Below, one piece after another: positions 1-52,211 of a stretch of 64,000 bases of DNA. How positions within the stretch are numbered: position 1 is the stretch's first letter; every line of letters starts with the position of its first letter. A program made the position numbers and the translations under genes. The DNA is from Dendronephthya gigantea (lineage: Eukaryota). A model generated the notes under the pieces. The model was not told the DNA's origin. It saw only the letters and a list, made by a program, of their open reading frames with translations, and searched no databases. The DNA is taken from positions 191,242 to 255,241 of the forward strand of contig NW_021163190.1 of assembly GCF_004324835.1 (NCBI RefSeq). Direction: 5' to 3'.

Positions 1-1028
1 ATATAGAAGGAAAACACGAAGCGGTTAACAACGAAGTAAAAGGATTGAAAACAGCTTTGGTCAGAGCTTTTCATGAAATGAAGGACGTTCTTATCACGAT
101 GGAGGGCAAGATAGAAGAAAACACAAGAAAAGTAAGAAATAGACCAAGTGGTGATAAGGAAAATATAATTGTTGCTGGAGGTTTTTGGATTAACTCTGTA
201 AAGATGTTTAACTGGCGTTAAAGAACATGGTCGCCATTACAATCAATGCGAAAGAATTGTTGGGGAGCGACTTCATTTATTTATAACAATCATATGACTA
301 TAGCTGGGGGTTGGTGTGATTGGTATGACATTGTTGATGATATGATTAGAATGAATATTGACCCAAACCCTGATCTCTCAACACACTGGAGTGGCTGTCC
401 TGTTAAACTACCTGATAAGTTGACATGCCACAGCAGTGTGCTGTATAATGACCAGCTGATAGTCTCTGGAGGTCGTAATGGAAATGGTTCATCTGACTTG
501 ATCAGAGCAGTCCAGCTTGTTCCTCCCTATACTGTGAAGACCTTATCAAGAATGCCAGAACCAAGACAATGTCACAGCATGGAAATATTTGATGATAATT
601 TGTTGATAGTTGGTGGAAGTACAACTGGCTATACTGAAGACAACCTCAGCAGTGTTGTACTGTACGATATAAAGAAGAATGAGCTGAAACAGTTCTCACC
701 ACTGCCGTATGAAGTGAGTGATATGGCAACTGTGAGATGGGGAGACAACATTGTTGTTATTGGTGGCGTTGACAAACATTGGCAGCCATTAGATACAGTT
801 ATCATTTACAATGTCAAGACAGAACAAAGTCACATGCTGCCATCAATGAGATGTAAGAGGGGTGGATGTACTGCAGTTGTTATTGAAAACAACATTGTAG
901 TCCTGGGAGGGAGGGGTGAGCATTTAGTGTTAAATTCAGTTGAAGGTTTCAACTTTGAAAGGTATTCTTGGGAAGAACTTCCAGAAATGTCTAAAGCAAG
1001 AATGTGGCACACTGCTGTTGTTGTGTGA
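1..1028 (+). pseudogene. RING-zfTRAF-coiled-coil-Kelch gene, copy 1 (5' end outside window); in-frame TAA at 219-221 replaces the conserved CAA (NWRQRTW in all other copies)
   Basis: Same frame as other copies from position 3 (..EGKHEAVNNEVKGLKTALV..IIVAGG..). Nonsense codon TAA at 219-221. Downstream ORF 246..1028 encodes Kelch blades ending TAVVV*. Confidence 0.7.
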
Positions 1029-1489
1029 ACAATATGTAAAGTATTAAGTGAAAACTCCTAACATATTATGAACAATTGAAATGAACTATAAGATTTTCAC
1101 AAAGTTATAGAAATAGATTGTAGCATTCTAAGTTGATTGTCAGACATATACTGATTTGTATTTTTATGTTTGAATTTAAATTGTGTCAGTTCTTAGAATT
1201 ATATATTAAAGAACAATAACAAATCTATGAAATAAATTTTTTCATTGAGGAAGGTTTAAAATGAAACATCAAATAAAACATTTGAAATAATATTTTCTGC
1301 ACCCCCTCCACATAGGTTTTTCACCCCCTTCCTCCCACAGGTTTTTTCACACCCCTCCTACCACCTAGGTTTTTTTAGCTATAACCCCACACTCCCACCT
1401 AGGTTTTTTCAGCCACAACCTGACCCCTCCCCACCTGGGTTCTTCTGCCCCAGCCCCCAGACCAAGAATCCTAACTGAGCCTCTGGCTC

Positions 1490-3225
1490 CATATTAAGCC
1501 CAGACAAATAAGTCGGCCATTTACTATACAACTAGTTACGTAACTTACTATATTATGGGAAAGGAAGAAAACTCTCGCCTCATTTTTCAACATGTTGACA
1601 AATTAAAACACAAATTACTATAGTAAAACGGCACGTCGGCTGCTAAATGCCTTCCGTAGGTTTAAGTTGAATAATCAAACTATACTTTCATAGTAAAAAT
1701 AGTGCTGAATTCAAAGGAAAGCCCTGGAAAAACCAGTGAGCTCCACATATATCTGGAGTAAGAACTTAAGACTTCCGTGAGGCCAAAAAGTGAAGCCAAA
1801 GATGGCGGATATTGAGGCGCTATAGTACGTCAGTTTCAGTCCTCCTACTGTGCACGGTCAAATAAATTCGTATTTTTCAACTTTAGTTTTTTCCTATTTT
1901 TGAGTAAAAAATGAGCGGAATTTCAATGATAGGTATAATACAAATGCTTTGTATTGAGATATTTTTATATTTCAATTAAATTAACAAAGAAATAAGCGAT
2001 ATCTTACACGGAAAGCTAAGGAGTGACGGATTGTTGATGTTTTCGGCTTTTCGCAAATCACAACATTTACTCGCAGAATATGCTTCCCAAAAACATAAAT
2101 AAAACTTTTCTAAGTTTAATTCATTTATATAAGGCTTTCATCCATGTAAAAAATTAATAGGAAAGAAAATTATGCCGAAAAACGTACGAGTTTAAAATAA
2201 TACTAATATATGATTATGAAATTTATAAACAAGAGTCAAGACTCATATTAAATGCAGGTATAAAAGAAACCTTAAAAAGAGCCCTATGCTAGGAAAGCTG
2301 GCCAAAAAATAAAGGAAAACTAGTGTTAAGGCGTTTCAAAACCAAAAGCGAAACCAGAAACTCAAAACATAAGGTGGAAATATATGAAAATAACTCAAAA
2401 TTAAACAAATCTGAAATGCGTATTTGAATTTATGGCGAAAAATACATATTTACTCACACGTACAGTCGGAAAATGCGGCACCTACATCGGGTAGATGCAG
2501 AGAAACAGATTCCCAGTAAAATTAATCTATTTTTTCCATTCTTGTGCTCTCAAAATGATGAAAAACACGAAAATTTGAGGGTTTCGGGAACCGTCACTCC
2601 CGGTCAAAAACAATGAGAAATATTTGGCCGCGCGAGTAAGGGGACTGAAACTGACGTACTATAGCGCTTCAGTGTCCGCCATCTTTGGCTTCACTTTTTG
2701 CACCCAAAGTTCTTACTCCAGATATATGTGGAGCTCACTGGGAAAAACGTACACAAACTTTGTAAATTTGACGAAATTTTCGTGAATACATGCGGGATGT
2801 AAGTACGTACCCAAATCGGCGACGGCAGAAGAATCTGATTGGTCGAGAAACGTAAACAAAATATGATCAACCAATCTGATTGGTCGTGAAAGGTAAACAA
2901 AGTATGAACGACCAATCAGATTCTTCTGCCACTGCCAGCCACCATTTTGGGTACGTACTTACATCCCGCACGAAAATTTCGTCAAATTTACAAAGTTTGT
3001 GTACGTTTTTCCAGCGCTTTGCTTTGAATTCAGCACTATTTTCATTATGAAAGTATAGTTTGATAATTCAACTTAAACCTACGGTAGGCATTTAGCAGCC
3101 GACGTGCCGTTTTACTATAGTAATTTGTGTTTTAATTTGTGAATATGTTGAAAAATGAGGCGAAAGTTTCCATCCTTCCCAATAATATAGTAAGTTACGT
3201 CGTAGATTTGTCTGGGCTTCCTATG
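1490..3225. mobile_element. ~1.7-kb foldback-like element with ~360-bp terminal inverted repeats and a nested internal palindrome (2750-3010); TSD CTGGCTC (7-8 bp)
   Basis: Left end CATATTAAGCCCAGACAAAT matches reverse complement of right end CATAGGAAGCCCAGACAAAT. 1497-1860 pairs with 2641-3235. CTGGCTC at 1483-1489 and 3226-3232, but only once (ctgcctc) in uninterrupted paralogous spacers. No ORF. Confidence 0.7.
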
Positions 3226-5346: not shown

Positions 5347-5637
5347 CTTTGATCTGCTAAAATTTAATCTTCTAGCTTGAAATAGCTTTTCATCGATATA
5401 ATGACCGCACTTATACAGGATGTTTAAAAAAACACAACACTTAATATTTATGAATATTTTGATACGCTATACGATCTTTTGTGATCAAAACGAAAGTGAA
5501 TTTCATAAACACTTTGAAAATGCGTTTTTTTTATTCACCACAGCTGTAGATCAATCCACAAAATATCCTGAACCATTTGTGTGTTGATGAAAACTCATTT
5601 AGATTGGAATATTATTGCACCGCGAAAATATTCAACT

Positions 5638-6995: not shown

Positions 6996-8618
6996 ATGGC
7001 TTCATATATACAAGGCTACGATAAAGAAAGGTTTGTCGACAAAATCAATCAAAATTTTCATTGCCAGATTTGCTTCAACGTCTTGAAAGAGCCGGTTATG
7101 TGTTCGAGAAACCAGCATTCTTTTTGCCGTTGTTGTATTACGAAACATCTGGAAAATTCTCAAACATGTCCAACGTGTGCTGATGAACTGACCGTAGAGA
7201 CTTTGATCGAACCACCGCGAATGGTTAAAGATTTTTTGAAAGAATCAAAAATTCGTTGCGTTTACATCGACAGAGGTTGTCAAGAAGTTGTAGAATTACA
7301 GCATCTTGACCGCCATGAAGATACATGTGGATATACACCAGCCGTTTGTACAAACCAAGGCTGTGGTTTAATTGTCAACAAGCGTGATCTTATTCACCAT
7401 GAAAGTGAAGTCTGTGAATTCCGAAAGTTGAAGTGTCACTCGTGCGGAGAAATAACGAAAACTTTGGCAGATATGGAGGAAAGAATGGCGAATATCGAGA
7501 AAAATAATGTAACAATTGAAACTAAAATAACAAATTTAGAGAAAAATATGGCGAGAAATACAACAGTCGCAGTCGCAGATTTAAAAGCAGATATGGAAGG
7601 AAAACACGAAGCGGTTAACAACGAAGTCAAAGGATTGAAAACAGCTTTGGTCAGAGCTTTTGATGAAATTAAGGACGTTCTTATCACGATGGAGGGCAAG
7701 ATAGAAGAAAACACAAGAAAAGTAAGAAATAGACCAAGTGGTGATAAGGAAAATATTATTGTTGCTGGAGGTTTTTTGACTAATTCTGTAGAGATGTTTA
7801 ACTGGCGTCAAAGAACATGGTCGCCATTACAATCAATGCCAAAGGATCGTTGGGGAGCGACTTCATTTATTTATAACAATCATATGACTATAGCTGGGGG
7901 TAGCTGTGCTGGGTCTGACATTGTTGATGACATGATTAGAATGAATATTGACCCAAACCCTGATCTCTCAACACAGTGGAGTGACTGTCCCGTTGAACTA
8001 CCTGATAAGTTGCAAAACCACAGCAGTGTGCTGTATAATGATCAGTTGATAGTCTCTGGAGGTGATTGCAAAAATGGTACATCTGACTTGATCGGATCAG
8101 CCCAGCTTGTTCCTCCCTATACTGTGAAGACCTTATCAAGAATGCCAGAACCAAGACAAGGTCACAGCATGGAAATATTTGATGATAATTTGGTGATAGT
8201 TGGTGGATTTTCAAATCGCCAATACAATGACATCCTCAGCAGTGGCATGCTGTACGGTATAAAGAAGAATGATCTGAAACAGTTATCACCACTGCCGTAT
8301 GAAGTGTGTGGTATGGCAACTGTGAGATGGGGAGACAACATTGTTGTTATTGGTGGCACTGATAATCATGGCAAGACATTAGATACAGTTATCATTTACA
8401 ATGTCAAGACAGGACAAAGTCACATGCTGCCATCAATGAGATGTAAGAGGAGGGGATGTACTGCAGTTGTTATTGAAAACAACATTGTAGTCCTGGGAGG
8501 GTGTGGTGAGGAAGGAGAGCTGAACTCAGTTGAAGGTTTCAACTTTGAAAGGTATTCTTGGGAAGAACTTCCAGAAATGTCTGAAGCAAGATGCTTGCAC
8601 AGTGCTGTTGTTGTGTGA
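6996..8618 (+). CDS. RING (C3HC4) - TRAF-type zinc finger - coiled coil - 6-blade Kelch propeller protein, 540 aa, intronless
   Basis: ORF track. RING: CQICFNVLKEPVMCSRNQHSFCRCCITKHLENSQTCPTC. zf-TRAF-like Cys/His spacing: CVYIDRGCQEVVELQHLDRHEDTCGYTPAVCTNQGCGLIVNKRDLIHHESEVCEFRKLKCHSCGE. Six GG-doublet blades: IIVAGG, MTIAGG, LIVSGG, LVIVGG, IVVIGG, IVVLGG. TGA stop followed by AATAAA-like signals. Confidence 0.85.
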   Translation: MASYIQGYDKERFVDKINQNFHCQICFNVLKEPVMCSRNQHSFCRCCITKHLENSQTCPTCADELTVETLIEPPRMVKDFLKESKIRCVYIDRGCQEVVELQHLDRHEDTCGYTPAVCTNQGCGLIVNKRDLIHHESEVCEFRKLKCHSCGEITKTLADMEERMANIEKNNVTIETKITNLEKNMARNTTVAVADLKADMEGKHEAVNNEVKGLKTALVRAFDEIKDVLITMEGKIEENTRKVRNRPSGDKENIIVAGGFLTNSVEMFNWRQRTWSPLQSMPKDRWGATSFIYNNHMTIAGGSCAGSDIVDDMIRMNIDPNPDLSTQWSDCPVELPDKLQNHSSVLYNDQLIVSGGDCKNGTSDLIGSAQLVPPYTVKTLSRMPEPRQGHSMEIFDDNLVIVGGFSNRQYNDILSSGMLYGIKKNDLKQLSPLPYEVCGMATVRWGDNIVVIGGTDNHGKTLDTVIIYNVKTGQSHMLPSMRCKRRGCTAVVIENNIVVLGGCGEEGELNSVEGFNFERYSWEELPEMSEARCLHSAVVV

Positions 8619-13210: not shown

Positions 13211-14815
13211 ATGGCTTCATATATACAAGGCTACGATGAAGAAAGGTTTGTGGACAAAATCAATCAAAATTTTCATTGCCAGATTTGCTTCAACGTCTTG
13301 AAAGAGCCGGTTATGTGTTCGAGAAACCAGCATTCTTTTTGCCGTTGTTGTATTACGACACATCTGGAAAATTCTCAAACATGTCCAACGTGTGCTGATG
13401 AACTGACCGTAGAGACTTTGATTGAACCACCGCGAATGGTTAAAGATTTTTTGAATGAATCAAAAATTCGTTGCATTTACATCGACAGAGGTTGTCAAGA
13501 AGTTGTAGAATTACAGCATCTTGACCGCCATGAAGATACATGTGGATATACACCAGCCGTTTGTACAAACCAAGGCTGTGGTTTAATTGTCAACAAGCGT
13601 GATCTTATTCACCATGAAAGTGAAGTCTGTGAATTCCGAAAGTTGAAGTGTCACTCGTGCAGAGAAATGACGAAAACTTTGCCAGATATAGAGGAAAGAA
13701 TGGCGAAGAATAATGTGACAATTGAAACAAAAATAACAAATTTAGAGAGGAATATGGCAAAAAATACCGCAGATATAAAAGCAGATATGGAAGGAAAACT
13801 CGAAGCGGTTAACAACAAAGTCGATGGATTGAAAACAGCTTTGGTCAGAGCTTTTGATGAAATGAAGGACGTTCTTATCACGATGGAGGGCAAGATAGAA
13901 GAAAACACAAGAAAAGTAAGAAATAGACCAAGTGGTGATAAGGAAAATATAATCGTTGCTGGAGGTTTAGGAATTAACTCTGTAGAGATGTTTAACTGGC
14001 GTCAAAGAACATGGTCGCCATTACAATCAATGCCAGAGGATCGTTATGGAGCGACTTCATTTATTTATAACAATCATATGACTATAGCTGGGGGTTGCTG
14101 TGGTGTTTGGTTTGTCATTGTTGATGATATGATTAGAATGAATATTGACCCAAACCCTGATCTCTCAACACACTGGAGTAACTGTCCTGTTAAACTACCT
14201 GATAAGTTGAAAAACCACAGCAGTGTGCTGTATAATGATCAGTTGATAGTCTCTGGAGGTGATAATGGAAATGTTTCATCAGACTTGATCAAATCAGTCC
14301 AGCTTGTTCCTCCCTATACTGTGAAGACCTTATCAAGAATGCCAGAACCAAGACAATGTCACAGCATGGAAATATTTGATGATAATTTGTTGATAGTTGG
14401 TGGAAGTACAACTGGCCATCACAAAGACAATCTCAGCAGTGTCGTACTGTACAATATAAAGAAGAATGAGCTGAAACAGTTGTCACCACTGCCGTATGAA
14501 GTGAATGATATGGCGACTGTGAGATGGGGAGACAACATTGTTGTTATTGGTGGCGAAGACAAACAAAGTTATAAATTAGATACAGTTATCATTTACAATG
14601 TCAAGACAGAACAAAGTCACATGTTGCCATCAATGAGATGTAAGAGGTGGGGAAGTACTGGAGTTATTATTGAAAACAACATTGTAGTCCTGGGAGGGAG
14701 GGGTGAGGACGAATACCTGAAGTCAGTTGAAGGTTTCAACTTTGAAAGGTATTCTTGGGAAGAACTTCCAGAAATGTCTGAAGCAAGATACTTGCACACT
14801 GCTGTTGTTGTGTGA
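13211..14815 (+). CDS. RING-zfTRAF-CC-Kelch paralog, 534 aa
   Basis: ORF track; same architecture. Shorter coiled-coil module and variant GG-loops (IAGGCCGVWFVIVDD). Confidence 0.85.
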   Translation: MASYIQGYDEERFVDKINQNFHCQICFNVLKEPVMCSRNQHSFCRCCITTHLENSQTCPTCADELTVETLIEPPRMVKDFLNESKIRCIYIDRGCQEVVELQHLDRHEDTCGYTPAVCTNQGCGLIVNKRDLIHHESEVCEFRKLKCHSCREMTKTLPDIEERMAKNNVTIETKITNLERNMAKNTADIKADMEGKLEAVNNKVDGLKTALVRAFDEMKDVLITMEGKIEENTRKVRNRPSGDKENIIVAGGLGINSVEMFNWRQRTWSPLQSMPEDRYGATSFIYNNHMTIAGGCCGVWFVIVDDMIRMNIDPNPDLSTHWSNCPVKLPDKLKNHSSVLYNDQLIVSGGDNGNVSSDLIKSVQLVPPYTVKTLSRMPEPRQCHSMEIFDDNLLIVGGSTTGHHKDNLSSVVLYNIKKNELKQLSPLPYEVNDMATVRWGDNIVVIGGEDKQSYKLDTVIIYNVKTEQSHMLPSMRCKRWGSTGVIIENNIVVLGGRGEDEYLKSVEGFNFERYSWEELPEMSEARYLHTAVVV

Positions 14816-15745: not shown

Positions 15746-15749
15746 CCGT

Positions 15750-17664: not shown

Positions 17665-19308
17665 ATGGCTTCATATATACAAGGCTACGATGAAGAAAGG
17701 TTTGTGAACCAAATCGATCGAAATTTTCATTGTCAGATTTGCTTCAACGTCTTGAAAGAGCCGGTTATGTGTTCGAGAAACCAGCATTCTTTTTGCCTTT
17801 GCTGTATTACGAAACATCTGGAAAAATCTCAAACTTGTCCAACGTGTGCCGATGAACTGACCGTAGAGACTTTGGCCGAACCAAATAGAATGGTAAAAGA
17901 TTTTTTGAATGAATCAAAAATTCGTTGCGTTTACATGGACAGAGGTTGTCAAGAAGTTGTAGAATTACAGCATCTTGACCGCCATGAAGATACATGTGGA
18001 TATACACCAGCCGTTTGTACAAACCAAGGCTGTGGTTTAATTGTCAACAAGCGTGATCTTATTCACCATGAAAGTGAAGTCTGTGAATTCCGAAAGTTGA
18101 AGTGTCACTCGTGCGGAGAAATGACGAAAACTTTGGCAGATATGGAGGAAAGAATGGCGAATATCGAGAAGAATATGGTAACAAATAACATTGAAACTAA
18201 AATAACAAATTTAGAGAAAAATGTTGCCACTGTTGCGAATAATATGGAGAAAAACACGGCAGATTTAAAAGCAAATATAAAAGCAGATATGGAAGGAAAA
18301 CTCGAAGCGGTTAACAACAAAGTCGATGGATTGAAAACAGCTTTGGTCAGAGCTTTTGATGAAATAAAGGACGTTCTTATCACGATGGAGGGCAAGAAAG
18401 AAGAAAACACAAGAAAAGTAAGAAATAGACCAAGTGGTGATAAGGAAAATATAATTGTTGCTGGAGATGTAGTAACTAACTCTGTAGAGATGTTTAACTG
18501 GCGTCAAAGAACATGGTCGCCATTACAATCAATGCCAAAGGATCGTTTTGGAGCGACTTCATTTATTTATAACAATCATATGACTATAGCTGGGGGTTAC
18601 TGTGATGTCATTGTTGATGATATGATTAGAATGAATATTGACCCAAACCCTGATCTCTCAACACACTGGAGTGACTGTCCTGTTAAACTACCTGATAAGT
18701 TGAGATTCCACAGCAGTGTGCTGTATAATGATCAGTTGATGGTCTCTGGAGGTGATATTGAAAATGGTTCATCTGACTTGATCAGATCAGTCCAGCTTGT
18801 TCCTCCCTATACTGTGAAGACCTTATCAAGAATGCCAGAACCAAGACAAGGTCACAGCATGGAAATATTTGATGATAATTTAGTGATAGTTGGTGGAAGT
18901 ACAATTAGCAGTTACAAAGGCAACCTTAGCAGTGTCGTACTGTACGATATAAAGAAGAATGAGCTGAAACAGTTGTCACCACTGCAGTATGAAGTGAGTC
19001 ACATGGCAACTGTGAGATGGGGAGACAACATTGTTGTTATTGGTGGCGATGACAAACATGGCAAGACATTAGATACAGTTATCATTTACAATGTCAAGAC
19101 AGAACAAAGTCACATGTTGCCATCAATGAGATGTAAGAGGTGGGGATGTGCTGCAGTTGTTATTGAAAACAACATTGTAGTCCTGGGAGAGGATGGTGAG
19201 GAAGGAAACCTGAAGTCAGTTGAAGGTTTCAACTTTGAAAAGTATTTTTGGGAAGAACTTCCAGAAATGTCTGAAGCAAGATTGTGGCCCACTGCTGTTG
19301 TTGTGTGA
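17665..19308 (+). CDS. RING-zfTRAF-CC-Kelch paralog, 547 aa
   Basis: ORF track. Longest coiled-coil (extra IEKN/VATVANNMEKN modules). Last blade reads LGEDGEEG, not LGG. Confidence 0.8.
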   Translation: MASYIQGYDEERFVNQIDRNFHCQICFNVLKEPVMCSRNQHSFCLCCITKHLEKSQTCPTCADELTVETLAEPNRMVKDFLNESKIRCVYMDRGCQEVVELQHLDRHEDTCGYTPAVCTNQGCGLIVNKRDLIHHESEVCEFRKLKCHSCGEMTKTLADMEERMANIEKNMVTNNIETKITNLEKNVATVANNMEKNTADLKANIKADMEGKLEAVNNKVDGLKTALVRAFDEIKDVLITMEGKKEENTRKVRNRPSGDKENIIVAGDVVTNSVEMFNWRQRTWSPLQSMPKDRFGATSFIYNNHMTIAGGYCDVIVDDMIRMNIDPNPDLSTHWSDCPVKLPDKLRFHSSVLYNDQLMVSGGDIENGSSDLIRSVQLVPPYTVKTLSRMPEPRQGHSMEIFDDNLVIVGGSTISSYKGNLSSVVLYDIKKNELKQLSPLQYEVSHMATVRWGDNIVVIGGDDKHGKTLDTVIIYNVKTEQSHMLPSMRCKRWGCAAVVIENNIVVLGEDGEEGNLKSVEGFNFEKYFWEELPEMSEARLWPTAVVV

Positions 19309-22278: not shown

Positions 22279-22584
22279 CTTTGATCTGCTAAAATTTAAT
22301 CTTCTAGCTTGAAATGGCTTTTCATCGATATATTGACCGCACTTATACAGGATGTTTCAAAAAACACAACACTTAATATTCATGAATATTTTGATACGCT
22401 ATACGATCTTTTGTGATCAAAACGACAATATCATTTTCCAGAAGATTGCGAGAAAATACAAACACAGACTTGTCCAAGAACGAACACTGTATCTATATTC
22501 AGTCTATACAGCGAGGTTTAAACTACAGAGCGACAAACAACACAGAGCTTGCTTTATTATTACCACACAAGAACGACGTGAAAT

Positions 22585-24207: not shown

Positions 24208-24769
24208 ACAATATGTAAGGTATTAAGTGAAAACTCCTAACATATTATGAACAATTGAAATGAACTATAAGATTTTCACAAAGTTATAGAAATAGATTGT
24301 AGGATTCTAAGTTGATTGTCAGACATATACTGATTTGTATTTTTGTAACTGAATTTAAATTGAGTCAGTTCTTGGAGTTATATATTAAAGAACAATGACA
24401 AATGTATGAAATAGATATTTCCATTCAGGAAGGTTTAAAATGAAACATCAAATAAAAGAATTCAAACAATAGGTAGGTGCATGAGTAAAAAAAATTTGAT
24501 TAAATATTGACCATGTTGGATCAGAGTTATTAGTTTCTATTAACTGCGGTTTGGATTTAAAAAATTCAACTTTCCTAGAAGCATAAATATTTCTGGGAGG
24601 AGACATAAAATGAAAGGGTAAACTTACGATGTTTCAGAGCATGTGATGCAGGGAATATTTCTGATGTTAGATTTCAACATTGATAATGGCGTTTGTTCAT
24701 CTCTACCATGATGTTCTCCACATTTGAAATAAAATTCCTTTGAAAGAACAAAAAGTTTGTGATCGACCT

Positions 24770-32841: not shown

Positions 32842-34467
32842 ATGGCTTCATATATACAAGGCTACGACGAAGAAAGGTTTGTGGACAAAATCAATCAAAA
32901 TTTTCATTGCCAGATTTGCTTCAACGTCTTGAAAGAGCCGGTTATGTGTTCGAGAAACCAGCATTCTTTTTGCCGTTGTTGTATTACGAAACATCTGGAA
33001 AATTCTCAAACATGCCCAACGTGTGCTGATGAACTGACCGTAGAGACTTTGATCGAACCACCGCGAATGGTTAAAGATTTTTTGAATGAATCAAAAATTC
33101 GTTGCGTTTACATCGACAGAGGTTGTCAAGAAGTTGTAGAATTACAGCATCTTGACCGCCATGAAGATACATGTGGATATACACCAGCCGTTTGTACAAA
33201 CCAAGGCTGTGGTTTAATTGTCAACAAGCGTGATCTTATTCGCCATGAAAGTGAAGTCTGTGAATTCCGAAAGTTGAAGTGTCACTCGTGCGGAGAAATA
33301 ACGAAAACTTTGGCAGATATGGAGGAAAGAATGGCGAATATCGAGAAGAATAATGTAACAATTGAAACTAAAATAACAAATTTGGAGAAAAACGTTGCCA
33401 CTGTTGCAAATATCGAGAAAAACACGGCAGACTTAAAAGCGAATATGGAAGGAAAACACGAAGCGGTTAACAACGAAGTCAAAGGATTGAAAACAGCTTT
33501 GGTCAGAGCTTTTGATGAAATAAAGGACGTTCTTATCACGATGGAGGGCAAGAAAGAAGAAAACACAAGAAAAGTAATAAATAGACCAAGTGGTGATAAG
33601 GAAAATATAATTGTTGCTGGAGGTTATTTGACTAACTCTGTAGAGATGTTTAACTGGCGTCAAAGAACATGGTTGCCATTACAATCAATGCCAGAGAAAC
33701 GTTATGGAGCGACTTCATTTATTTACAACAATCATATGACTATAGCTGGGGGTTGCTGTTTTCCTAACATTGTTGATGATATGATTAGAATGAATATTGA
33801 CCCAAACCCTGATCTCTCAACACACTGGAGTGACTGTCCTGATAAACTACCTGATAAGTCGAGATTCTACAGCAGTGTGCTGTATAATGATCAGTTGATA
33901 GTCTCTGGAGGTGAAGAGAGAAACGATTCATCTGACTTGATCAGAGCAGTCCAGCTTGTTCCTCCCTATACTGTGAAGACCTTATCAAGAATGCCAGAAC
34001 CAAGACAATGTCACAGCATGGAAATATTTGATGATAATTTGTTGATAGTTGGTGGAAGAACAACTCACAGACACACAGACAACCTCAGCAGTGTCGTACT
34101 GTACGATATAAAGAAGAATGAGCTGAAACAGTTGTCACCACTACCGTATGAAGTGAGTCTCATGGCAACTGTGAGATGGGGAGACAACATTGTTGTTATT
34201 GGTGGCATTGACAAACATGCCAAGACATTAGATACAGTTATCATTTACAATGTCAAGACAGAACAAAGTCACATGCTGCCATCAATGAGACGGAAAAGGA
34301 GGGGATGTACTGCAGTTGTTATTGAAAACAACATTGTAGTCCTTGGAGGGTTTGGTGAGCGACGAGAGCTGAAGTTAGTTGAAGGTTTCAACTTTGAAAG
34401 GTATTCTTGGGAAGAGCTTCCAGAAATGTCTGAAGCAAGATACTGGCACACTGCTGTTGTTGTGTGA
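32842..34467 (+). CDS. RING-zfTRAF-CC-Kelch paralog, 541 aa
   Basis: ORF track; same architecture; loops IAGGCCFPNIVDD, SGGEERNDSSD, LGGFGERRELKLVEG. Confidence 0.85.
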   Translation: MASYIQGYDEERFVDKINQNFHCQICFNVLKEPVMCSRNQHSFCRCCITKHLENSQTCPTCADELTVETLIEPPRMVKDFLNESKIRCVYIDRGCQEVVELQHLDRHEDTCGYTPAVCTNQGCGLIVNKRDLIRHESEVCEFRKLKCHSCGEITKTLADMEERMANIEKNNVTIETKITNLEKNVATVANIEKNTADLKANMEGKHEAVNNEVKGLKTALVRAFDEIKDVLITMEGKKEENTRKVINRPSGDKENIIVAGGYLTNSVEMFNWRQRTWLPLQSMPEKRYGATSFIYNNHMTIAGGCCFPNIVDDMIRMNIDPNPDLSTHWSDCPDKLPDKSRFYSSVLYNDQLIVSGGEERNDSSDLIRAVQLVPPYTVKTLSRMPEPRQCHSMEIFDDNLLIVGGRTTHRHTDNLSSVVLYDIKKNELKQLSPLPYEVSLMATVRWGDNIVVIGGIDKHAKTLDTVIIYNVKTEQSHMLPSMRRKRRGCTAVVIENNIVVLGGFGERRELKLVEGFNFERYSWEELPEMSEARYWHTAVVV

Positions 34468-40245: not shown

Positions 40246-40397
40246 ATGGCTTCATATATACAAGGCTACGATGAAGAAAGGTTTGTGAACCAAATCGATC
40301 GAAATTTTCATTGTCAGATTTGCTTCAACGTCTTGAAAGAGCCGGTTATGTGTTCGAGAAACCAGCATTCTTTTTGCCGTTGTTGTATTACGAAACA
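40246..40397 (+). pseudogene. 5' fragment (Met1..CCITKH) of a RING-zfTRAF-CC-Kelch copy, cut off by a transposon insertion
   Basis: MASYIQGYDEERFVNQIDRNFHCQICFNVLKEPVMCSRNQHSFCRCCITKH, then non-homologous GAATAC-rich sequence. The gene resumes at 43943. Confidence 0.8.
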
Positions 40398-43300
40398 CTG
40401 CATGAAAAACCGCGTATTCACAGGTGAATACGTGCGAATATGAGTTCGAATATGGTCCATATTCACACGTATTCACAGATATTCACTGTGAATATCCTCG
40501 GAATATTGGGGGTATTCCGATGTGAATACCTGTGAATAAAACACACCGCGTATTCTGACCTAGAATACCTTCGAATACTCTGTGAATATTTTTCAAGACC
40601 TAGTATTCACACTTCGGCATAGAAAATGTGATTGTACGCATGAATACTGGATAATCAACGAGTTATATTGTGTAAATATTGCAGGAAATGCGTTTATATA
40701 CCACGGAATAGGCAATTAAAGGTTGTTTCAGTTCAATGCCGGTGTCAACTGTTATCCAGCATTTCTTCTCATCACGGTCACAAATTGAAATTGCACTTGA
40801 TTTGTTTAGGCGACAGACAATAAATGTTACCAAACGCACGATGATTTTTATTTGATTAATTTTTTTGCTGCCGCAGGGATGTCGAGTATCGTATATCCTC
40901 AGTCGATGAGCGCTGAGTAGCCTCGTAAGTCGTAAAAAAGCTGTATAAAAAGAGAAATATCCATCAATTTCTTTTATTACCTGTGTAAAAGAAGTTATAT
41001 ATAAAAAAAATACTTTTATTTTTGCTTGGATACGTAAACACATGGGTAGAAAGTTGATGATTCTGTATCGTCAAAAGCATCCGTAATATAAACAGTTCAG
41101 TGTTGGGAAATCGTAGGAAATTTCCTTTGGGAAATTTCCTCTTCGACATGTTAGTGACAATTTTTGCGCCAAGGAATTGCGGCGAAATTGCGAATAAATG
41201 GCGAAATTCGGAGGTCGTATAACAATAACAAATAAATGTCTTTAAATGATTCCTCGCAAAAGTTGTCCAGTTCCCTTTGTTTACAAAACGATAACATGGC
41301 ACAAATGTCAATTGGTTTCAACCAGGGCGCTTATATATAAATGCGTGGTTTCAACAGAAGTTCAAGCTGTTCAACTTTGAATTGTTAAAGATGTTCGCGA
41401 TGCCCCAAAATAATTCTTGTGGCGGCGCTAAAATCAGGTAAGTTATTTAATAATAACAAGAGTTATGTCATACTATAGTCCTGAAACAACACAACACAAC
41501 AACAATAGTGCGAGGCCAACGCTTTTACGGCTGGGCTCATCACTTTTTTTGTTTTTATTAATATAAATAGATTACGATTGTGTTTATTGTAGCTAATTTG
41601 TACACAGCTAACTGTACCTGCTTGTAGATAAATAAATTGTATGATGGTTTTCATCAATCCTACCTCCATCACACACTAATTATAGTAGGTACAAATGTTT
41701 GCCATTTCAAAGCCATACTCAATACAAACAAAATTTAAAAGTTTGCCAATACTGAAAAGGGACATTACTTTCTTACCTACCACAAATATTCAGAAAGCTG
41801 CTGTAATCATAACTTTAACATAACATAACCCTTAGATAGACGTTTCAAGATGCATTGAAATGAGGTGCATTGGTACATTTCATGAGGGTTTTTTATATTT
41901 TAGGCAAAATTTATATATTATAGATATATATTGTTATATAATTGTCACAGAATAGCTAATGATTGATTGCCAAAAGATTGAAATCTTAACAATCAGCTGC
42001 CCAAAGACAGAAATCTTAACAGCTTAGAAATCAAAGCCAGACTGTGTTTTTTAGTTATATATAATACATATTTTTTAACAAAATAATGGCCTATATTTTT
42101 CCTTTTAGCATATATGAATTATATTTAAACTAATATTTACCACAGAATAGCTATTGAACTGGTTGCCAAAAGATAGGAATCTTAACAACCAGCTGCCCAA
42201 AGACAGAAATCTTAACAGCTTAGAAGTTCATGCTAGACTGTGTTTTTAAGTGAAGCCTTTTAACATTGCCCTCATCATAATTTATAACTGAGACTGTTTA
42301 CTGATTTGTACATATACATTCTCCTAGGAATATTATAATTTCATTACACTGCATAAAATCTATGCACAACAATAAAAACAAATGGCCATGCATGCAACAT
42401 CAGCTTTTACCATTATCATTAACCTTTCGGATAATAATCTATTATAGCTTAAGAAAGTTTGCTATGTATTTTGTTCAATAATTGCTTTAAGGTGGTTTTA
42501 ATTGTTTTTAGCCATCAGGGGTTGCAAGATTGAGAAAATTCCCAAAAGAGTTGGCCTTAACTTTGCTAAAGATGAAGAGGATTTTTCACCCAGTGAAAGA
42601 AGTTCCTGATTCATTATCTGCTCACCTATAGTTTTTAATATCTTACCAAGTGAAAAAACATCACTTGCTTTGCTCAACAATTTACTATTAAGTATAATTT
42701 CTGACATACTCCAGGAGCAATGTGTTTCATATAATACTAAAACAACATTGCTTATAAATTAAACAATCAGCTGATGAAAGATTGAAAATCATAACAGCTT
42801 AGTAGAAGTTCATGATAGGCTGTGTTTTTGCTACATATTTTGAACAATTTGTGATGTTCCAATAATATTTTTATAAAATGTGAAATGTTGTAACCCATCA
42901 CATGTACATGTGATCTGTTAAGGACTGTATAAAATTTAAATAATTGACTGAAATCTTAGTATTGCATTTGATCAACCTTGATAAAACACATTAACTGTGG
43001 ATAAACCTACCATTGCAATGTGTATGACTGCTATGCAAATTAACATGGCAACCTAAAGATTATGCATGTTGTTCATATTGATATTTTCCTTAATGGACAG
43101 ACTTGAGGGACAATAAATGCCTAAACATTCGCACAGGCTGCGAACGCATAACCCATTAACCTCTTATCACCAGGTAATTTGTTAATAAAATGTTGAGATT
43201 ACTCCCAACATGGTCATCGGGTATAGTCTATAGACCGGCTATTGAATTCAACTGCACGATATTTAGTCACTCACCGAAGAGGTCCCTTACGCACAAACAG

Positions 43301-43942
43301 TATATGCGTTTTCGGTTTTGAACAATAAAAAATCCTTGAAATACGGTTAATATTCGTTATCATTTTACACGTATTAGCGAACATAAGGTGCTGTAGCAAT
43401 CGCGCCATGCAATCTCATTTCTATTTCGCGCATTTTCTTCATCAGACTTCGTGGGAATCGTAGCATACAAATACTCGCCGGCATGCTCTTTAACTGCGAC
43501 CAGAGTTTCCAGACTTTACCAAGCCCTTGGCATCCTTCACTCTCTTCCCTTATTTGTAAGCGCCAAAAAGATTTCTTACAGCCACAAACGCACGATCTCC
43601 TCGTTCAATGTTTATTAAACTCGAAAGCGCGCTTTTTGGTTTTTGCGCCAAATTATTTATAAAATTCCACTTCAATTTTTCAGCATTCAAAATAAAGTTT
43701 AAAAATGTCAGCTGATGAATTTATTTTGTGGAAACACGGATTAAGTGAGAAGTGAGATATTCCAAGTGTGAATATTGGTCAGAATACGCGGCATATTCAC
43801 GGCGTATTCACACTTAGAATACTGAAGAATACGATGCCGTATTCACACTAATATTCCATGTCGGAATACGCTTGCAATATGTGTTTTATTCACACCCGTA
43901 TTCACATGTGAATACCTTGGAATACGGCGCTTTTCATGCAGT
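40398..43942. mobile_element. ~3.5-kb non-autonomous TIR DNA transposon inserted in the RING-coding part of a Kelch gene copy; TSD GAAACA (6 bp, possibly a degenerate 8 bp)
   Basis: Termini CTGCATGAAAAACCGCGTATTC ... GGCGCTTTTCATGCAGT are inverted. Dense subterminal GAATAC/GTATTC repeats at both ends. Host sequence GAAACA present on both sides (40392-40397 and 43943-43948). Internal ~85-bp repeats near 41940 and 42130. No transposase-like ORF. Confidence 0.75.
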
Positions 43943-45422
43943 GAAACATCTGGAAAATTCTCAAACATGCCCAACGTGTGCTGATGAACTGACCGTAGAG
44001 ACTTTGGCCGAAGCACCGCGAATGGTAAAAGATTTCCTGAATGAATCAAAAATTCGTTGCGTTTACATCGACAAAGGTTGTCAAGAAGTTGTAGAATTAC
44101 AGCATCTTGACCGCCATGAAGATACATGTGGATATACACCAACCGTTTGTACAAACCAAGGCTGTGGTTTAATTGTCAACAAGCGTGATCTTATTCACCA
44201 TGAAAGTGAAGTCTGTGAATTCCGAAAGTTGAAGTGTCACTCGTGCGGAGAAATAACGAAAACTTTGGCAGATATGGAGGAAAGAATGGCGAATATCGAG
44301 AAGAATATCGAGAAGAATAATACAACAGTTGAAATTAAAATAAGAAATTTAGACAGAAAAATAGACAAAAACACGGCAGATATAAAAGCAGATATGGAAG
44401 GAAAACACGAAGCGGTTAACAACGAAGTCAGAGGATTGAAAACAGCTTTGGTCAGAGCTTTTGATGAAATGAAGGACGTTCTTATCACGATGGAGGCCAA
44501 GAAAAAAGAAAACATAGCAAAGGTAATAAATAGACCAAGTGGTGATAAGGAAAATATAATTGTTGCTGGAGGTATAGGAATTAACTCTGTAGAGATGTTT
44601 AACTGGCGTCAAAGAACATGGTCGCCATTACAATCAATGCCAGAGGGTCGTTATGCAGCGACTTCATTTATTTATAACAATCATATGACTATAGCTGGGG
44701 GTAGCTGTCGTGGTTTTTCTGGCATTGTTGATGATATGATTAGAATGAATATTGACCCAAACCCTGATCTCTCAACACACTGGAGTGACTGTCCTGTTAA
44801 ACTACCTGATAAGTTGAATAACCACAGGAGTGTGCTGTATAATGATCAGTTGATAGTCTCTGGAGGTGATAATGAAAATGGTTCATCTGACTTGATCAGT
44901 TCAGTCCAGCTTGTTCCTCCCTATACTGTGAAGACCTTATCAAGAATGCCAGAACCAAGAAAATATTACAGCATGGAAATATTTGATGATAATTTGTTGA
45001 TACTTGGTGGAAGAACAACTGGCAGTGCCAAAGACAGCCTCAGCAGTGTCGTACTGTACGATATAAAGAAGAATGAGCTGAAACAGTTGTCACCACTACC
45101 GTATGAAGTGAGTCACATGGCAACTGTGAGATGGGGAGACAACATCGTTGTTATTGGTGGTGCTGACAAACATGGCAAGTTAATAAATACAGTTATCATG
45201 TACAATTTCAAGACAGAACAAAGTCACATGCTGCCATTAATGATATGTAAGAGAAGTGCATGTACCGCAGTTGTTATTGAAAACAACATTGTAGTCCTGG
45301 GAGGGTGTGGTGAGCAAGGAGAGCTGAAGTCAGTTCAAGGTTTCAACTTTGAAAGGTATTCTTGGGAAGAACTTCCAGAAATGTCTAAAGCAAGATACTG
45401 GCACACTGCTGTTGTTGTGTGA
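43943..45422 (+). pseudogene. 3' portion (LENSQTCPTC...TAVVV*) of the same transposon-disrupted RING-zfTRAF-CC-Kelch copy
   Basis: ORF 43872..45422 becomes homologous to the family exactly at HLENSQ after the duplicated GAAACA. The remainder is a complete zfTRAF-CC-Kelch reading frame. Confidence 0.8.
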
Positions 45423-50150: not shown

Positions 50151-50570
50151 AGATTATAAATAACACTAGAGGAGGCATTGGTACGAAAAACACAATGAAC
50201 TCCATATATTAAATATATATATAAAACATCAGTCAAGAAAGGCGGCGCGATTATGGCGGGCAAATTAAGTCCCGGATGCAAGCAGCGCTGATTGGGTAGA
50301 TCAACGCCTCCTTAGCAACCACGTTGTTTATAATTTCTATGCGCGATGCAGCAGAAAGGACGCGTCTTACGCAAACACTTTATAACGAAGAGAGATTTGT
50401 CTTCATAAACTGATCATTTTGGAGAAAATTTCAAAAAAACAAACAAACACAGACATCTTCAAGAACGAACACCATATCTATATTCAAGTCTATACAGCGA
50501 GGTTTATACTACAGAGCGACAAACAACACAGAACTTGCTTTATTATTACGACACAAGAACGACGTGAAAT

Positions 50571-52211
50571 ATGGCTTCATATATACAAGGCTACGATGAA
50601 GAAAGGTTTGTGAACAAAATCGATCGAAATTTTCATTGCCAGATTTGCTTCAACGTTTTGAAAGAGCCGGTTATGTGTTCGAGAAACCAGCATTCTTTTT
50701 GCCGTTGTTGTATTACGAAACATCTGGAAAATTCTCAAACATGCCCAACGGTGCTGATGACTGACCGTAGAGACTTTGACCGAACCTTCACGATGGTAAA
50801 AGATTTTTTAAATGAATCGAAAATTCGTTGCGTTTACATCGACAGAGGTTGTCAAGAAGTTGTAGAATTACAGCATCTTGACCGTCATGAAGATACATGT
50901 GGATATACACCAGCCGTTTGTACAAACCAAGGCTGTGGTTTAATTGTCAACAAGCGTGATCTTATTCACCATGAAAGTGAAGTCTGTGAATTCCGAAAGT
51001 TGAAGTGTCACTCGTGCGGAGAAATAACGAAAACTTTGGCAGAAATGCAGGAAAGAATGGCGAATATCGAGAAGAATATGGTAACAAATAAAACAGTTGA
51101 AACTAAAATAACAAATTTAGAGAAAAATGTTGCCACTGTTGCGAATAATATGGAGAAAAACACGGCAGATATAAAAGCAGATATGGAAGGAAAACACGAA
51201 GCGGTTAACAACGAAGTCAAAGGATTGAAAACAGCTTTGGTCAGAGCTTTTGATGAAATGAAGGACGTTCTTATCACCATGGAGGGCAAAAAAGAAGAAA
51301 ACACAAGAAAACTAATAAATAGACCAAGTGGTGATAAGGAAAATATAATTGTTGCTGGAGGTGGTTGGTCTAACTCTGTGGAGATGTTTAACTGGCGTCA
51401 AAGAACATGGTCGCCATTACAATCAATGCCAAAGGATCGTTCTGGAGCGACTTCATTTATCTATAACAATCATGTGACTATAGCTGGGGGTTGCTGTGAT
51501 GTTTGGTCTGGGATTCTTGATGATATGATTAGAATGAATATTGACCCAAACCCTGATCTCTCAACACACTGGAGTGACTGTCCTGTTAAACTACCTGATA
51601 AGTTGAGATACCACAGCAGTGTGCTGTATAATGATCAGTTGATAGTCTCTGGAGGTGATAATGGAAATGGTTTATCTGACTTGATCAGTTCAGTCCAGCT
51701 TGTTCCTCCCTATACTGTGAAGACCTTATCAAGAATGCCAGAACCAAGACAAGGTCACACCATGGAAATATTTGATGATAATTTGTTGATAGTTGGTGGA
51801 ACTGCAACTGGCGGATGCAAAGACAACCTCAGCAGTGTCGTACTGTTCAATATAAAGAAGAATGAGCTGAAACAGTTGTCACCACTGCCGTATGAAGTGA
51901 GTGATATGGCAACTGTGAGATGGGGAGACAACATTGTTGTTATTGGTGGCGCTGACAAACATGCCAAGCCATTAGATACAGTTATCATTTACAATGTCAA
52001 GACAGAACAAAGTCACATGCTGCCATCAATGAGATGTAAGAGGAGGGGATGTACTGCAGTTGTTATTGAAAACAACATTGTAGTCCCGGGAGGGGATGGT
52101 GAGCGACGAGAGCTGAAGTCAGTTGAAGGTTTCAACTTTGAAAGGTATTCTTGGGAAGAACTTCCAGAAATGTCTGAGGCAAGATGGCTGCACACTGCTG
52201 TTGTTGTGTGA
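50571..52211 (+). CDS. RING-zfTRAF-CC-Kelch paralog, 546 aa; three separate 1-bp deletions (net -3) destroy the end of the RING (CPTCADELTVETLAEPSRM becomes CPTVLMTDRRDFDRTFTM)
   Basis: Alignment against copy at 28680-28750: ccaacgtgtgctgatgaactgacc vs ccaacggtgctgatgactgacc, and cacgaatggtaaaag vs cacgatggtaaaag. The rest of the ORF is intact. Confidence 0.7.
   Translation: MASYIQGYDEERFVNKIDRNFHCQICFNVLKEPVMCSRNQHSFCRCCITKHLENSQTCPTVLMTDRRDFDRTFTMVKDFLNESKIRCVYIDRGCQEVVELQHLDRHEDTCGYTPAVCTNQGCGLIVNKRDLIHHESEVCEFRKLKCHSCGEITKTLAEMQERMANIEKNMVTNKTVETKITNLEKNVATVANNMEKNTADIKADMEGKHEAVNNEVKGLKTALVRAFDEMKDVLITMEGKKEENTRKLINRPSGDKENIIVAGGGWSNSVEMFNWRQRTWSPLQSMPKDRSGATSFIYNNHVTIAGGCCDVWSGILDDMIRMNIDPNPDLSTHWSDCPVKLPDKLRYHSSVLYNDQLIVSGGDNGNGLSDLISSVQLVPPYTVKTLSRMPEPRQGHTMEIFDDNLLIVGGTATGGCKDNLSSVVLFNIKKNELKQLSPLPYEVSDMATVRWGDNIVVIGGADKHAKPLDTVIIYNVKTEQSHMLPSMRCKRRGCTAVVIENNIVVPGGDGERRELKSVEGFNFERYSWEELPEMSEARWLHTAVVV

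Follow-up and report, generated by a model that had tools for sequence, protein, structure and literature searches.

A stretch of Dendronephthya gigantea DNA that carries one gene many times over raises the question of what kind of protein the gene encodes, and what the differences among its copies may mean. The window (the whole 64,000-nt stretch analysed) contained nine copies of a single-exon gene of ~540 aa, all on the + strand and head-to-tail within positions 1-52211 (Table 1). No sequence resembling the array copies was found in the window downstream of 53116. The original prediction of at least nine genes, each with one ~540-aa ORF, held for the number of copies but not for the ORFs, which were intact in only five of the nine (c2, c3, c4, c5 and c7). 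Coding sequences were 92.1-94.5% identical in nucleotides, in line with the >90% first estimated, and the intact copies shared 85.8-88.5% pairwise amino-acid identity. Stop-to-stop spacing was 4.3-11 kb, which does not fit the proposed units of ~4.5-6.2 kb. The UTRs had been described as shared, and conservation of the presumed UTRs bore this out: ~170 bp abutting the ATG was common to all eight copies with a start inside the window, and a 3' flank followed the stop codon in all nine. Eight of these flanks carried AATAAA/ATTAAA hexamers, located near +177 and +244 past the stop. Beyond the ~170 bp, upstream sequences fell into at least three classes. Spacers and satellites varied between copies.

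Table 1. Features of the array and of representative copy c5, as positions in the window. All residue numbers, here and in the text, refer to copy c5.
Feature	Coordinates	Strand	Remarks
Copy c1	1..1028	+	5' part cut by window start; 3' two-thirds present
Copy c2	6996..8618	+	intact single-exon ORF, 540 aa
Copy c3	13211..14815	+	intact ORF, 534 aa
Copy c4	17665..19308	+	intact ORF, 547 aa
c5 conserved upstream stretch	22415..22584	+	presumed 5' UTR and core promoter
Copy c5	22585..24207	+	intact ORF, 540 aa
c5 RING finger, C3HC4	22651..22767	+	aa 23-61
c5 TRAF-type zinc fingers	22846..23034	+	two CCHC fingers and half-site
c5 helical, coiled-coil-like region	23038..23292	+	aa 152-236; heptad periodicity
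c5 six-blade Kelch propeller	23335..24204	+	aa 251-540; AlphaFold2, Pfam
c5 conserved 3' flank	24208..24460	+	presumed 3' UTR
Copy c6	28520..30157	+	frameshifted
Copy c7	32842..34467	+	intact ORF, 541 aa
Copy c8, 5' part	40246..40397	+	codons 1-~50, to mid-RING
Non-autonomous DNA transposon	40398..43941	.	~3.5 kb, in c8 RING
Copy c8, 3' part	43942..45422	+	
Copy c9	50571..52211	+	open ORF, 546 aa

Of the nine copies, three or four carry damage (c1, c6, c8, c9), which fits birth-and-death turnover. Copy c1 is a probable pseudogene because of an in-frame nonsense change (CAA>TAA) at 219-221, in blade 1 of the propeller. Four 1-bp indels in c6 (+1, +1, -1, -1; ~29030-29200) lead to stops in the coiled-coil part only, with the RING-zinc-finger part and the propeller staying in frame, and this copy is either a pseudogene or carries assembly errors. 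Three 1-bp deletions within ~45 nt of c9 (about 50745-50800) restore the frame while exchanging 'TCADELTVETLIEPPR' for 'TVLMTDRRDFDRTFT', so that the last RING cysteine, the eighth zinc ligand, is gone. The c8 transposon carries imperfect terminal inverted repeats of 68 nt (40396-40463 and 43876-43943), lies between the copies of a GAAACA duplication and contains no large ORF. Since excision of the element in silico left an uninterrupted 541-aa ORF, the insertion is a recent one.

In c6 and c9, some of the indels fall in short A runs and their net effect on the reading frame is neutral, as could be the case for uncorrected long-read errors. The array could on that account be an artefact of annotation or assembly, in which one or two genes were over-expanded through haplotypes or collapsed or expanded repeats and the indels are sequencing errors. 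We consider this very improbable, as the copies differ by 5.5-8% of their nucleotides and by loop indels, the spacers and satellites differ by copy, one copy holds a transposon, and five 1.6-kb ORFs run without any frameshift. In independent assemblies, too, family members stand as similar neighbours in tandem, and single contigs hold many of them.

Pfam, profile comparison and AlphaFold2 agreed on the order originally proposed, namely RING, TRAF-type zinc fingers, coiled coil and six-blade Kelch propeller. In the Pfam search, Kelch (E to 1e-33) and zf-C3HC4_2 scored above cut-off; with single sequences, zf-TRAF and Sina_ZnF fell just under their curated cut-offs. The HMM search thus recovered the RING and the propeller but narrowly missed the fingers, which were matched through TRAF6: a single-sequence query reached the TRAF6 RING-ZF at E=4e-9, and a profile built from the first 160 aa did so at E=6.7e-17 over residues 8-154, with TRAF5 next best (E=6e-14). 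The fingers comprise C88/C95/H107/C111, C118/C123/H135/C140 and the half-site C147-x2-C150. Across 44 aligned family members, all eight RING zinc ligands, Ile25, Pro59 and all zinc-finger ligands including C147/C150 were invariant. Ile25 and Pro59 are at positions that usually contact the E2.

The coiled-coil region was predicted to be helical over residues 152-234, with Pro and Gly scarce and a heptad contrast equalled in 19 of 1000 shuffles; its AlphaFold2 confidence was low, and paralogs differed there by 4-11-residue indels. For the propeller (aa 251-540), the AlphaFold2 model had six blades at pLDDT >90, with blade 1 closed by the C-terminal strand A, and it aligned with the six-blade Kelch domains of KLHL12, KLHL20 and KEAP1 at target TM 0.89-0.93. 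Domain and profile searches of the array proteins detected no MATH, BTB/BACK, B-box or WD40, and the first two of these absences had been foreseen.

Proteins with this combination of RING, TRAF-type fingers and Kelch are found well beyond the window. The homolog search gave 1531 matches at E<=1e-5 and 273 clusters at 50% identity (E<=1e-30), with full-length homologs down to 33-35% identity. Named homologs came from octocorals only (Paramuricea clavata and D. gigantea), and the P. clavata gene is likewise single-exon. Several family members often shared a contig, and other assemblies also contained head-to-tail neighbours. The proteins are already in public databases, where their names ('RING finger 151-like', 'NRDP1', 'PDZRN3-like', 'kelch-like protein 31') are misleading, being best-hit transfers based on the N-terminal 150 residues only. 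In RNF151, RNF41/NRDP1 and PDZRN3, too, zinc finger(s) of the TRAF or Sina type come after a RING, and it is because of this common order that their names were assigned automatically. None of the three is known to have a Kelch propeller, and a Pfam search of the array proteins found no USP8-interaction domain and no PDZ domain. A literature search found no paper describing a RING–TRAF-finger–Kelch family. This agrees with the first remark that the domain order was not recognised as a described family, but the layout has a precedent in TRAF7.

TRAF7 comprises a RING, a zinc finger, a coiled coil and seven WD40 repeats, and its propeller binds MEKK3; the array proteins are alike in having a RING, TRAF-type zinc finger(s), a coiled coil and a C-terminal beta-propeller that replaces MATH/TRAF-C (PMC5347962). 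Because TRAF7 has made the same exchange of MATH for a propeller, the array layout is less unprecedented than first claimed. In a layout of this type the propeller would be the partner-binding module, and the array proteins would therefore be self-contained RING E3s. The array propeller is a six-blade KLHL-type Kelch rather than seven WD40 repeats, and the octocoral family has hundreds of copies, tandem arrays and a hypervariable pocket, whereas TRAF7 is a conserved single-copy gene. COP1 and RFWD3 are RING-plus-WD40 'RFWD' ligases, and the TRIM-NHL proteins end in a six-blade propeller. TRAF6 and TRAF5 share with the octocoral proteins the RING and consecutive CCHC TRAF-type zinc fingers (residues 8-154) followed by a coiled coil; the octocoral proteins lack MATH/TRAF-C and end in a Kelch propeller.

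The adaptors KLHL12, KLHL20 and KEAP1 have a similar six-blade Kelch domain (~20% identity), whose substrate pocket is formed on the upper face by the BC and DA loops (PMC3597819). These are BTB-BACK-Kelch CUL3 adaptors, whereas the octocoral proteins carry a RING in the same polypeptide and, with no BTB or BACK domain, would therefore have no route to CUL3. For the TRIM-B30.2 proteins finTRIM and TRIM5, lineage-specific tandem expansion and positive selection focused on recognition-domain loops are reported (PMC2657112). They resemble the array proteins in having a RING, an oligomerising coiled coil, a C-terminal recognition domain and tandem, lineage-specific expansion. The octocoral proteins differ from TRIMs in having no B-box, in their TRAF-type fingers and in a putative recognition domain that is Kelch, not B30.2/NHL, and the host lineage of the family is Octocorallia. 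By analogy, the family is best read as having a layout like that of TRAF7 and a mode of evolution like that of finTRIM/TRIM5.

Differences among the paralogs cluster in the BC and DA loops, which would form the Kelch substrate pocket. With the loops delimited from the strands of the predicted structure, BC or DA loops contained 38 of the 45 propeller positions that varied most, and the same positions had the highest entropy among 39 homologs of other genomes. Nei-Gojobori dN/dS, computed from pooled and non-independent comparisons among just nine paralogs that recombine, was 2.14 for BC loops (site-bootstrap 95% CI 1.28-3.88), 1.21 for DA loops (interval including 1), 0.49 for propeller strands, 0.30 for the RING-zinc-finger region and 0.30 for the AB and CD loops of the opposite face, which were conserved more strongly than any other class (dN 0.011). 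Synonymous divergence was also raised in the loops (0.16 vs 0.07), and alignment near loop indels is uncertain. Counted as minimum changes, the 47 BC codons had 105 non-synonymous and 8 synonymous changes, compared with 48 and 29 in the remaining propeller (184 codons; Fisher p=4e-7). In two independent arrays, BC loops were compared with the remainder of the propeller, and dN/dS was 2.67 vs 0.27 in the L006 pair and 0.93 vs 0.35 in the L001 trio, where relaxed constraint would fit as well as positive selection. The suggested likeness to immune E3 expansions gains from this focus of amino-acid change in the presumed pocket loops and from BC dN/dS >1, with an immune role itself drawn from analogy.

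The same numbers bear on a reading in which constraint is merely relaxed. The arrays would then be a largely redundant, recently amplified E3 family acting on endogenous substrates, with many copies decaying, loops drifting neutrally because variability is tolerated rather than selected, and no recognition of non-self. In its favour are the damage to three or four copies of the array, the general tolerance of surface loops for change, the DA interval and the L001 value. We nevertheless regard this reading as unlikely, given the lower bootstrap bound for BC loops, the L006 ratio and the 105:8 excess of non-synonymous changes. The AB and CD loops, though just as exposed, are the most conserved, and the pocket is hypervariable across genomes while scaffold and RING are under purifying selection.

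A further reading concerns the ligand alone and overlaps in mechanism with the one we favour. The proteins would be signalling adaptors whose propeller docks on cytoplasmic motifs of host receptors or kinases and which build K63 chains for NF-kB/MAPK, after the models of TRAF2/TRAF3/TRAF6 and of TRAF7 with MEKK3; they would have expanded in step with a family of host receptors. The N-terminal half is closest to the TRAF6 and TRAF5 RING-ZF, a coiled coil is present, and the TRAF7 propeller does bind MEKK3 (PMC5347962). We think this quite unlikely, as no co-expanded receptor family was seen in the window or at the other loci examined, and adaptors whose host targets are conserved motifs would not usually show pocket dN/dS >1 with loop indels.

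On balance, we think it probable that the array represents a single cluster within a large, lineage-expanded octocoral family of self-contained RING ligases with a diversifying recognition surface and a probable role against non-self. The TRAF6-like RING and two TRAF-type zinc fingers would recruit E2~ubiquitin, and the coiled coil would drive oligomerisation and thereby give avidity and RING clustering. A target would be bound by the upper-face pocket of BC and DA loops on the KLHL-type propeller. With the front end and scaffold near-constant and the pocket loops varying by substitutions and small indels, each copy probably binds a different ligand. The family would turn over by birth and death, through tandem duplication, pseudogenisation and transposon insertions, and segmental exchange between copies may also contribute. 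By analogy with TRIM5 and the finTRIMs, the family most likely serves to recognise non-self or parasitic proteins that evolve fast, whether of viral, microbial or transposon origin. Binding would then lead to destruction through ubiquitin or to K63 signalling of the TRAF type.

Nine plus-strand copies of one gene (c1-c9) were located at positions 1-52211 by a six-frame ORF list and self-BLAST of one unit, and the same ORF list and self-BLAST against the window yielded no additional gene copy in 52211-64000. The original prediction of at least nine tandem genes was correct as to number, while copy integrity and unit length had to be revised: five copies (c2, c3, c4, c5 and c7) are intact, with ORFs of 534-547 aa, and stop-to-stop distances between copies range over 4.3-11 kb rather than ~4.5-6.2 kb. 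The copies share 92.1-94.5% of their coding nucleotides, and the intact ones 85.8-88.5% of their amino acids. In all eight copies that have a start, the ~170 bp 5' of the ATG are conserved. The 3' flank is conserved throughout the nine, eight of which carry poly(A)-signal hexamers near +177 and +244 after the stop codon. The G+C content of the window is 35-39%.

The remaining copies are damaged in different ways. Removal of the 3.5-kb element from c8, where it is flanked by a GAAACA duplication, restored an ORF of 541 aa. The indels in c6 introduce stops, with the RING-zinc-finger part and the propeller remaining in frame, and in c9 the frame is kept but the segment with the last RING cysteine is replaced. 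In both copies the indels are clustered and net frame-neutral, some lie in short A runs, and the frame is regained past the scrambled stretch; they are absent from the five other 1.6-kb ORFs. These indels may stem from compensated frameshifts, from decay or from an error in the local assembly.

Positions of the gene copies and other features in the window
Feature	Positions	Strand	State or remarks
c1	1-1028	+	Truncated by window start; CAA>TAA at 219-221 (nucleotide alignment and translation)
c2	6996-8618	+	Single-exon ORF, uninterrupted
c3	13211-14815	+	Single-exon ORF, uninterrupted
c4	17665-19308	+	Single-exon ORF, uninterrupted
c5	22585-24207	+	Single-exon ORF, uninterrupted
Variable coiled-coil segment of c5 (aa 165-200)	23078-23185	+	In-frame indels between copies
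c6	28520-30157	+	Four 1-bp indels (+1, +1, -1, -1), coiled-coil segment only
c7	32842-34467	+	Single-exon ORF, uninterrupted
c8		+	Split near codon ~50 by 3.5-kb element (alignment and targeted translation)
Terminal inverted repeats of element in c8	40396-40463 / 43876-43943		68 nt, imperfect
c9	50571-52211	+	Three 1-bp deletions (-1, -1, -1), 50745-50800, inside ~45 nt
1.4-kb spacer block	4096-5493, 10010-11407, 16109-17510, 21027-22425, 47685-48834		
Modelled gene in 1.4-kb block, exon 1	22278-22233	-	Signal-peptide-like MFGVVKIVVIFLVFA
Modelled gene in 1.4-kb block, exons 2 and 3	22134-22029, 21931-21850	-	GT-AG borders
138-bp minisatellite	5638-6604, 24765-25197, 34932-35225, 56185-56535, 56929-57574	both	2-7 copies per site, 92-96% matches
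Tandem array, 19-nt GA-rich units	25662-25951		
Tandem array, 77-bp units	53801-54592		x10
Tandem array, 80-bp units	55373-55931		x7
AGXT, first coding exon	57697-58059	-	E=2e-33, human AGXT residues 7-121
Small ORF	59876-60142	-	Paralog of next; common C-terminal motif …Y+VE.I.PC..G.H…CKKCG..FF
Small ORF	61326-61709	+	Same motif; begins with signal-peptide-like segment

Pfam domains were called at E≤0.1 in three copies. The Kelch matches were strong (E down to 1e-33), comprising Kelch_1 to Kelch_6 and the KLHL-type propeller family, and the C3HC4 RING (zf-C3HC4_2) exceeded its curated cut-off. zf-TRAF scored 21-25 bits versus a cut-off of 27, and Sina_ZnF was likewise slightly under its own. 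None of the MATH, BTB, BACK, B-box, WD40, PDZ and USP8-interaction domains was matched in these three copies at that threshold, and the sole TRIM-related match was a weak one to TRIM_CC (E=0.005). When compared with PDB sequences, residues 5-156 (numbered as in c5, 540 aa) aligned with a TRAF6 RING-ZF construct (E=4e-9), and the N-terminal 160 residues, used as a profile, matched the TRAF6 RING-ZF at E=6.7e-17 over residues 8-154 and TRAF5 at 6e-14, with generic RINGs scoring far lower. In a 44-sequence alignment the eight RING ligands (C23, C26, C36, H41, C44, C47, C58 and C61), two complete CCHC fingers (C88/C95/H107/C111 and C118/C123/H135/C140) and a C147-x2-C150 half-site were invariant, as were Ile25 and Pro59, which occupy the usual E2-contacting positions of RING domains.

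AlphaFold2, run on the same alignment, placed a propeller at residues 251-540 (pLDDT ~90-96) and modelled the RING-zinc-finger region with moderate confidence (pLDDT 70-90) and residues 152-234 as long helices with low pLDDT. The latter segment contains three Pro/Gly only, and its heptad contrast was equalled by 19 of 1000 shuffles. In a Foldseek search of the PDB, designed six-fold Kelch proteins superposed on the propeller, as did the six-blade Kelch domains of KLHL12, KLHL20, KLHL17 and KEAP1, with a target TM of 0.89-0.93 and an rmsd of ~2 A. Strand assignment in the model gave six blades, in every one of which strand B is followed by a GG doublet; blade 1 is closed by the C-terminal strand A. 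The coiled-coil region carries in-frame indels of 4-11 residues in all copies, made of NIEKN-, NVATVAN- and ADLK-like units, so that the coil differs in length between paralogs (534-547 aa proteins); this might limit their hetero-oligomerisation. The predicted order of RING, TRAF zinc finger and Kelch propeller is borne out by Pfam, by the TRAF6 profile match and by the modelled propeller, whose six blades agree with those first proposed from the sequence, and the helical segment between is a candidate coiled coil.

Several known families share part of this layout. In the canonical TRAFs (TRAF1-6), too, TRAF-type CCHC zinc fingers come after an N-terminal RING, and a coiled coil (TRAF-N) drives trimerisation; the predicted helices of residues 152-234 would be its counterpart here. 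The family might on the TRAF model consist of TRAF-kind adaptors of host receptors, a reading that we regard as quite unlikely. TRAF1-6 end in MATH/TRAF-C, whereas residues 251-540 here are a Kelch propeller; having no MATH/TRAF-C, the family is not a canonical TRAF. TRAF7 is similar in layout, with a RING, zinc finger, coiled coil and a propeller replacing MATH (PMC5347962). This precedent was overlooked in the original prediction, although the domain order and the likeness to immune E3 expansions that it put forward are supported. The TRAF7/RFWD propeller consists of seven WD40 repeats and that of the family is a six-blade Kelch, so the absence of WD40 repeats separates the two. BTB-Kelch proteins (KLHL/KBTBD), which are CUL3 adaptors, have a six-blade Kelch with a substrate pocket in the BC and DA loops, a propeller type that the family shares; the family, lacking BTB/BACK and starting with a RING and zinc fingers, is not a KLHL. 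RNF41/NRDP1 has a USP8-interacting C-terminal domain and PDZRN3 has PDZ domains, neither of which Pfam detected in the three copies at E≤0.1. TRIM-B30.2 expansions resemble it in evolutionary behaviour, but without a B-box, and with a RING-to-coiled-coil region that matches TRAF/Sina zinc fingers, it is not a TRIM.

The best match to the window's proteins in a collection of 5.8 billion proteins was 76% identical, and 1531 proteins of that collection matched at E≤1e-5. All named matches of that search belong to the gorgonian Paramuricea clavata ('RING finger 151-like', 'E3 ubiquitin-ligase NRDP1' and 'kinase'), in which the gene is likewise single-exon. Exhaustive scanning of 50%-identity representatives with HMMER gave 273 clusters at E≤1e-30, and many of their representatives align from the RING to the last blade with just 33-46% identity. 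A homolog 35% identical to c5 (P0169), used as query, retrieved a second large subfamily, whose named members are 'NRDP1' and 'PDZRN3-like' in P. clavata and 'kelch-like protein 31' and 'uncharacterized protein LOC114529098' in the soft coral Dendronephthya gigantea. The names RNF151-like, NRDP1 and PDZRN3-like reflect the N-terminal 150 residues only. As judged by these matches, the family is present in gorgonians and nephtheid soft corals at least. Shared contigs were common among the matches (for example, 10 of the best 120 on one 1.66-Mb contig), and head-to-tail neighbours were found in other assemblies, with three genes in 8 kb at locus L001 and two at locus L006. Identity within the array (86-88%) exceeds that of the best cross-species match (76%), which suggests that the array was amplified locally and recently or has evolved in concert.

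Six relatives (P0199, P0209, P0211, P0244, P0251 and P0258) have no Kelch domain but resemble the family, at 45-50% identity, from the RING through the TRAF zinc fingers to the start of the coiled coil. Long tails, disordered or of low complexity, follow, and one of the six ends in CAP-Gly. Scanning of these Kelch-less relatives revealed no alternative globular recognition domain at the C-terminus. Their existence is consistent with addition of the Kelch domain onto a pre-existing RING-zinc-finger-coiled-coil gene, and they may represent the ancestral gene type before the fusion. No description of the architecture was found in the searchable literature, the genome papers of P. clavata and Eunicella verrucosa included. 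The family is real and large; it is mis-annotated, and undescribed in that literature.

Variation in the nine-copy protein alignment was uneven, being placed directly after each GG doublet and 1-2 residues before each strand A. With loop classes taken from the model strands, independently of variability, BC or DA loops, which lie on the upper face, accounted for 38 of the 45 propeller positions that varied most. Nei-Gojobori estimates, pooled over non-independent copy pairs, gave a dN/dS of 2.14 for BC loops (dN 0.345, dS 0.161, site-bootstrap 95% CI 1.28-3.88) and 1.21 for DA loops (dN 0.120, dS 0.099, CI 0.66-2.64), values to be read with the loop dS also being raised and loop indels making the alignment uncertain. 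The ratio was 0.49 for strands (dN 0.035, dS 0.071), 0.30 for the AB and CD loops of the opposite face (dN 0.011, dS 0.038) and 0.30 for the RING-zinc-finger region (dN 0.022, dS 0.074). A tree-free count of minimum non-synonymous to synonymous changes per column was 105:8 in the 47 BC codons versus 48:29 in the remaining 184 propeller codons (Fisher p=4e-7). Since the substrate site of Kelch domains is the upper face (Canning et al., PMC3597819), the hypervariable loop residues of the model form the predicted ligand pocket.

The same positions held the entropy maxima in 39 homologs of other genomes (BC-loop mean 1.45 bits; strands 0.41; AB and CD loops 0.52). BC dN/dS was 2.67 versus 0.27 elsewhere in the L006 pair, and 0.93 versus 0.35 elsewhere in the L001 trio. 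Both the entropy maxima and the dN focus of these two arrays agree with the BC-loop concentration, and a dN/dS above 1 on the recognition surface was replicated in L006, though not clearly in L001. The L001 value would also fit relaxed constraint on redundant copies, an explanation to which we give a low but appreciable chance. In the window, a lineage-specific tandem expansion was found together with a BC-loop dN/dS of 2.14, as in immune-type E3 expansions, and the comparison originally drawn with such expansions now has quantitative backing in this ratio and the 105:8 count; the function itself we infer. Tandem expansion restricted to a lineage, with positive selection acting on the recognition loops, is seen in the finTRIMs of fish and in TRIM5 of primates (PMC2657112), the nearest parallels to the family in evolutionary behaviour. 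This likeness favours a role in recognising non-self or parasitic proteins that evolve rapidly.

Along the gene, a copy's nearest neighbour shifts, some loop variants are shared in varied combinations, and 58% of informative site pairs failed the four-gamete test. As a PHI-like permutation test was non-significant (196/2000), these patterns are taken as suggesting gene conversion or segmental exchange between copies.

The 1.4-kb spacer block is ~96-97% identical between units, higher than the coding sequence (92-94%) and the other spacer (84-90%), and is rich in short direct and inverted GGGAAACTCGTCT repeats. A three-exon minus-strand gene modelled in this block, with TATAAG ~60 nt upstream, would run divergently from the next ligase gene and encode a ~78-aa peptide that contains Cys and is secreted. 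This candidate was rejected, as its copies differ mostly by non-synonymous changes, one of them contains a stop, and the other-species loci gave no homolog. The 138-bp minisatellite, found downstream of the array as well as in several spacers, is probably part of a dispersed repeat or a transposon. The AGXT exon (serine-pyruvate/alanine-glyoxylate aminotransferase) indicates that the neighbour of the array is an ordinary housekeeping gene of several exons, oriented towards it. The small ORFs downstream of the array, including the two paralogs in the table, had no Pfam match; these two may be small secreted cysteine-containing proteins. No Rfam or tRNA genes were found in the window.

In the mechanism we propose, the RING would recruit an E2, the coiled coil would oligomerise the protein as in TRAFs and TRIMs, and the propeller pocket would be the target-binding site, with a specificity different for each paralog. 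Multivalent ligand binding would then cluster the RINGs and lead to ubiquitination, degradative or K63-type. Overall, we consider it reasonably probable that the gene encodes a self-contained RING E3 whose diversifying pocket recognises rapidly evolving non-self or parasitic proteins. A broader proposal, held more tentatively as a possibility somewhat short of an even chance, is that octocorals possess a hitherto unrecognised, germline-encoded repertoire of hundreds of intracellular receptors with a TRAF-type RING-zinc-finger-coiled-coil front end, in which the hypervariable Kelch is the sensor and the binding of diverse viral, microbial or transposon proteins is coupled directly to ubiquitination, an independently evolved counterpart of TRIM5 and the finTRIMs. 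If true, this would be the first immune-receptor class with a Kelch propeller as the variable recognition module.

Cnidarians have innate immunity only, and octocoral die-offs through disease and heat are a conservation problem. To our knowledge, their known receptor repertoires (TLR, NLR and lectins) do not cover this RING-Kelch family. The misleading names RNF151-like, NRDP1, PDZRN3-like and kelch-like 31, which now hide the family from comparative immune surveys, are corrected by these results. The family would also be a natural experiment in the re-targeting of an E3 ligase through loop variation on a stable propeller, of relevance to engineered degraders. With hundreds of members, each joining a catalytic RING and a rapidly diversifying Kelch pocket in one chain, it would be a new class of candidate intracellular sensors or restriction factors.
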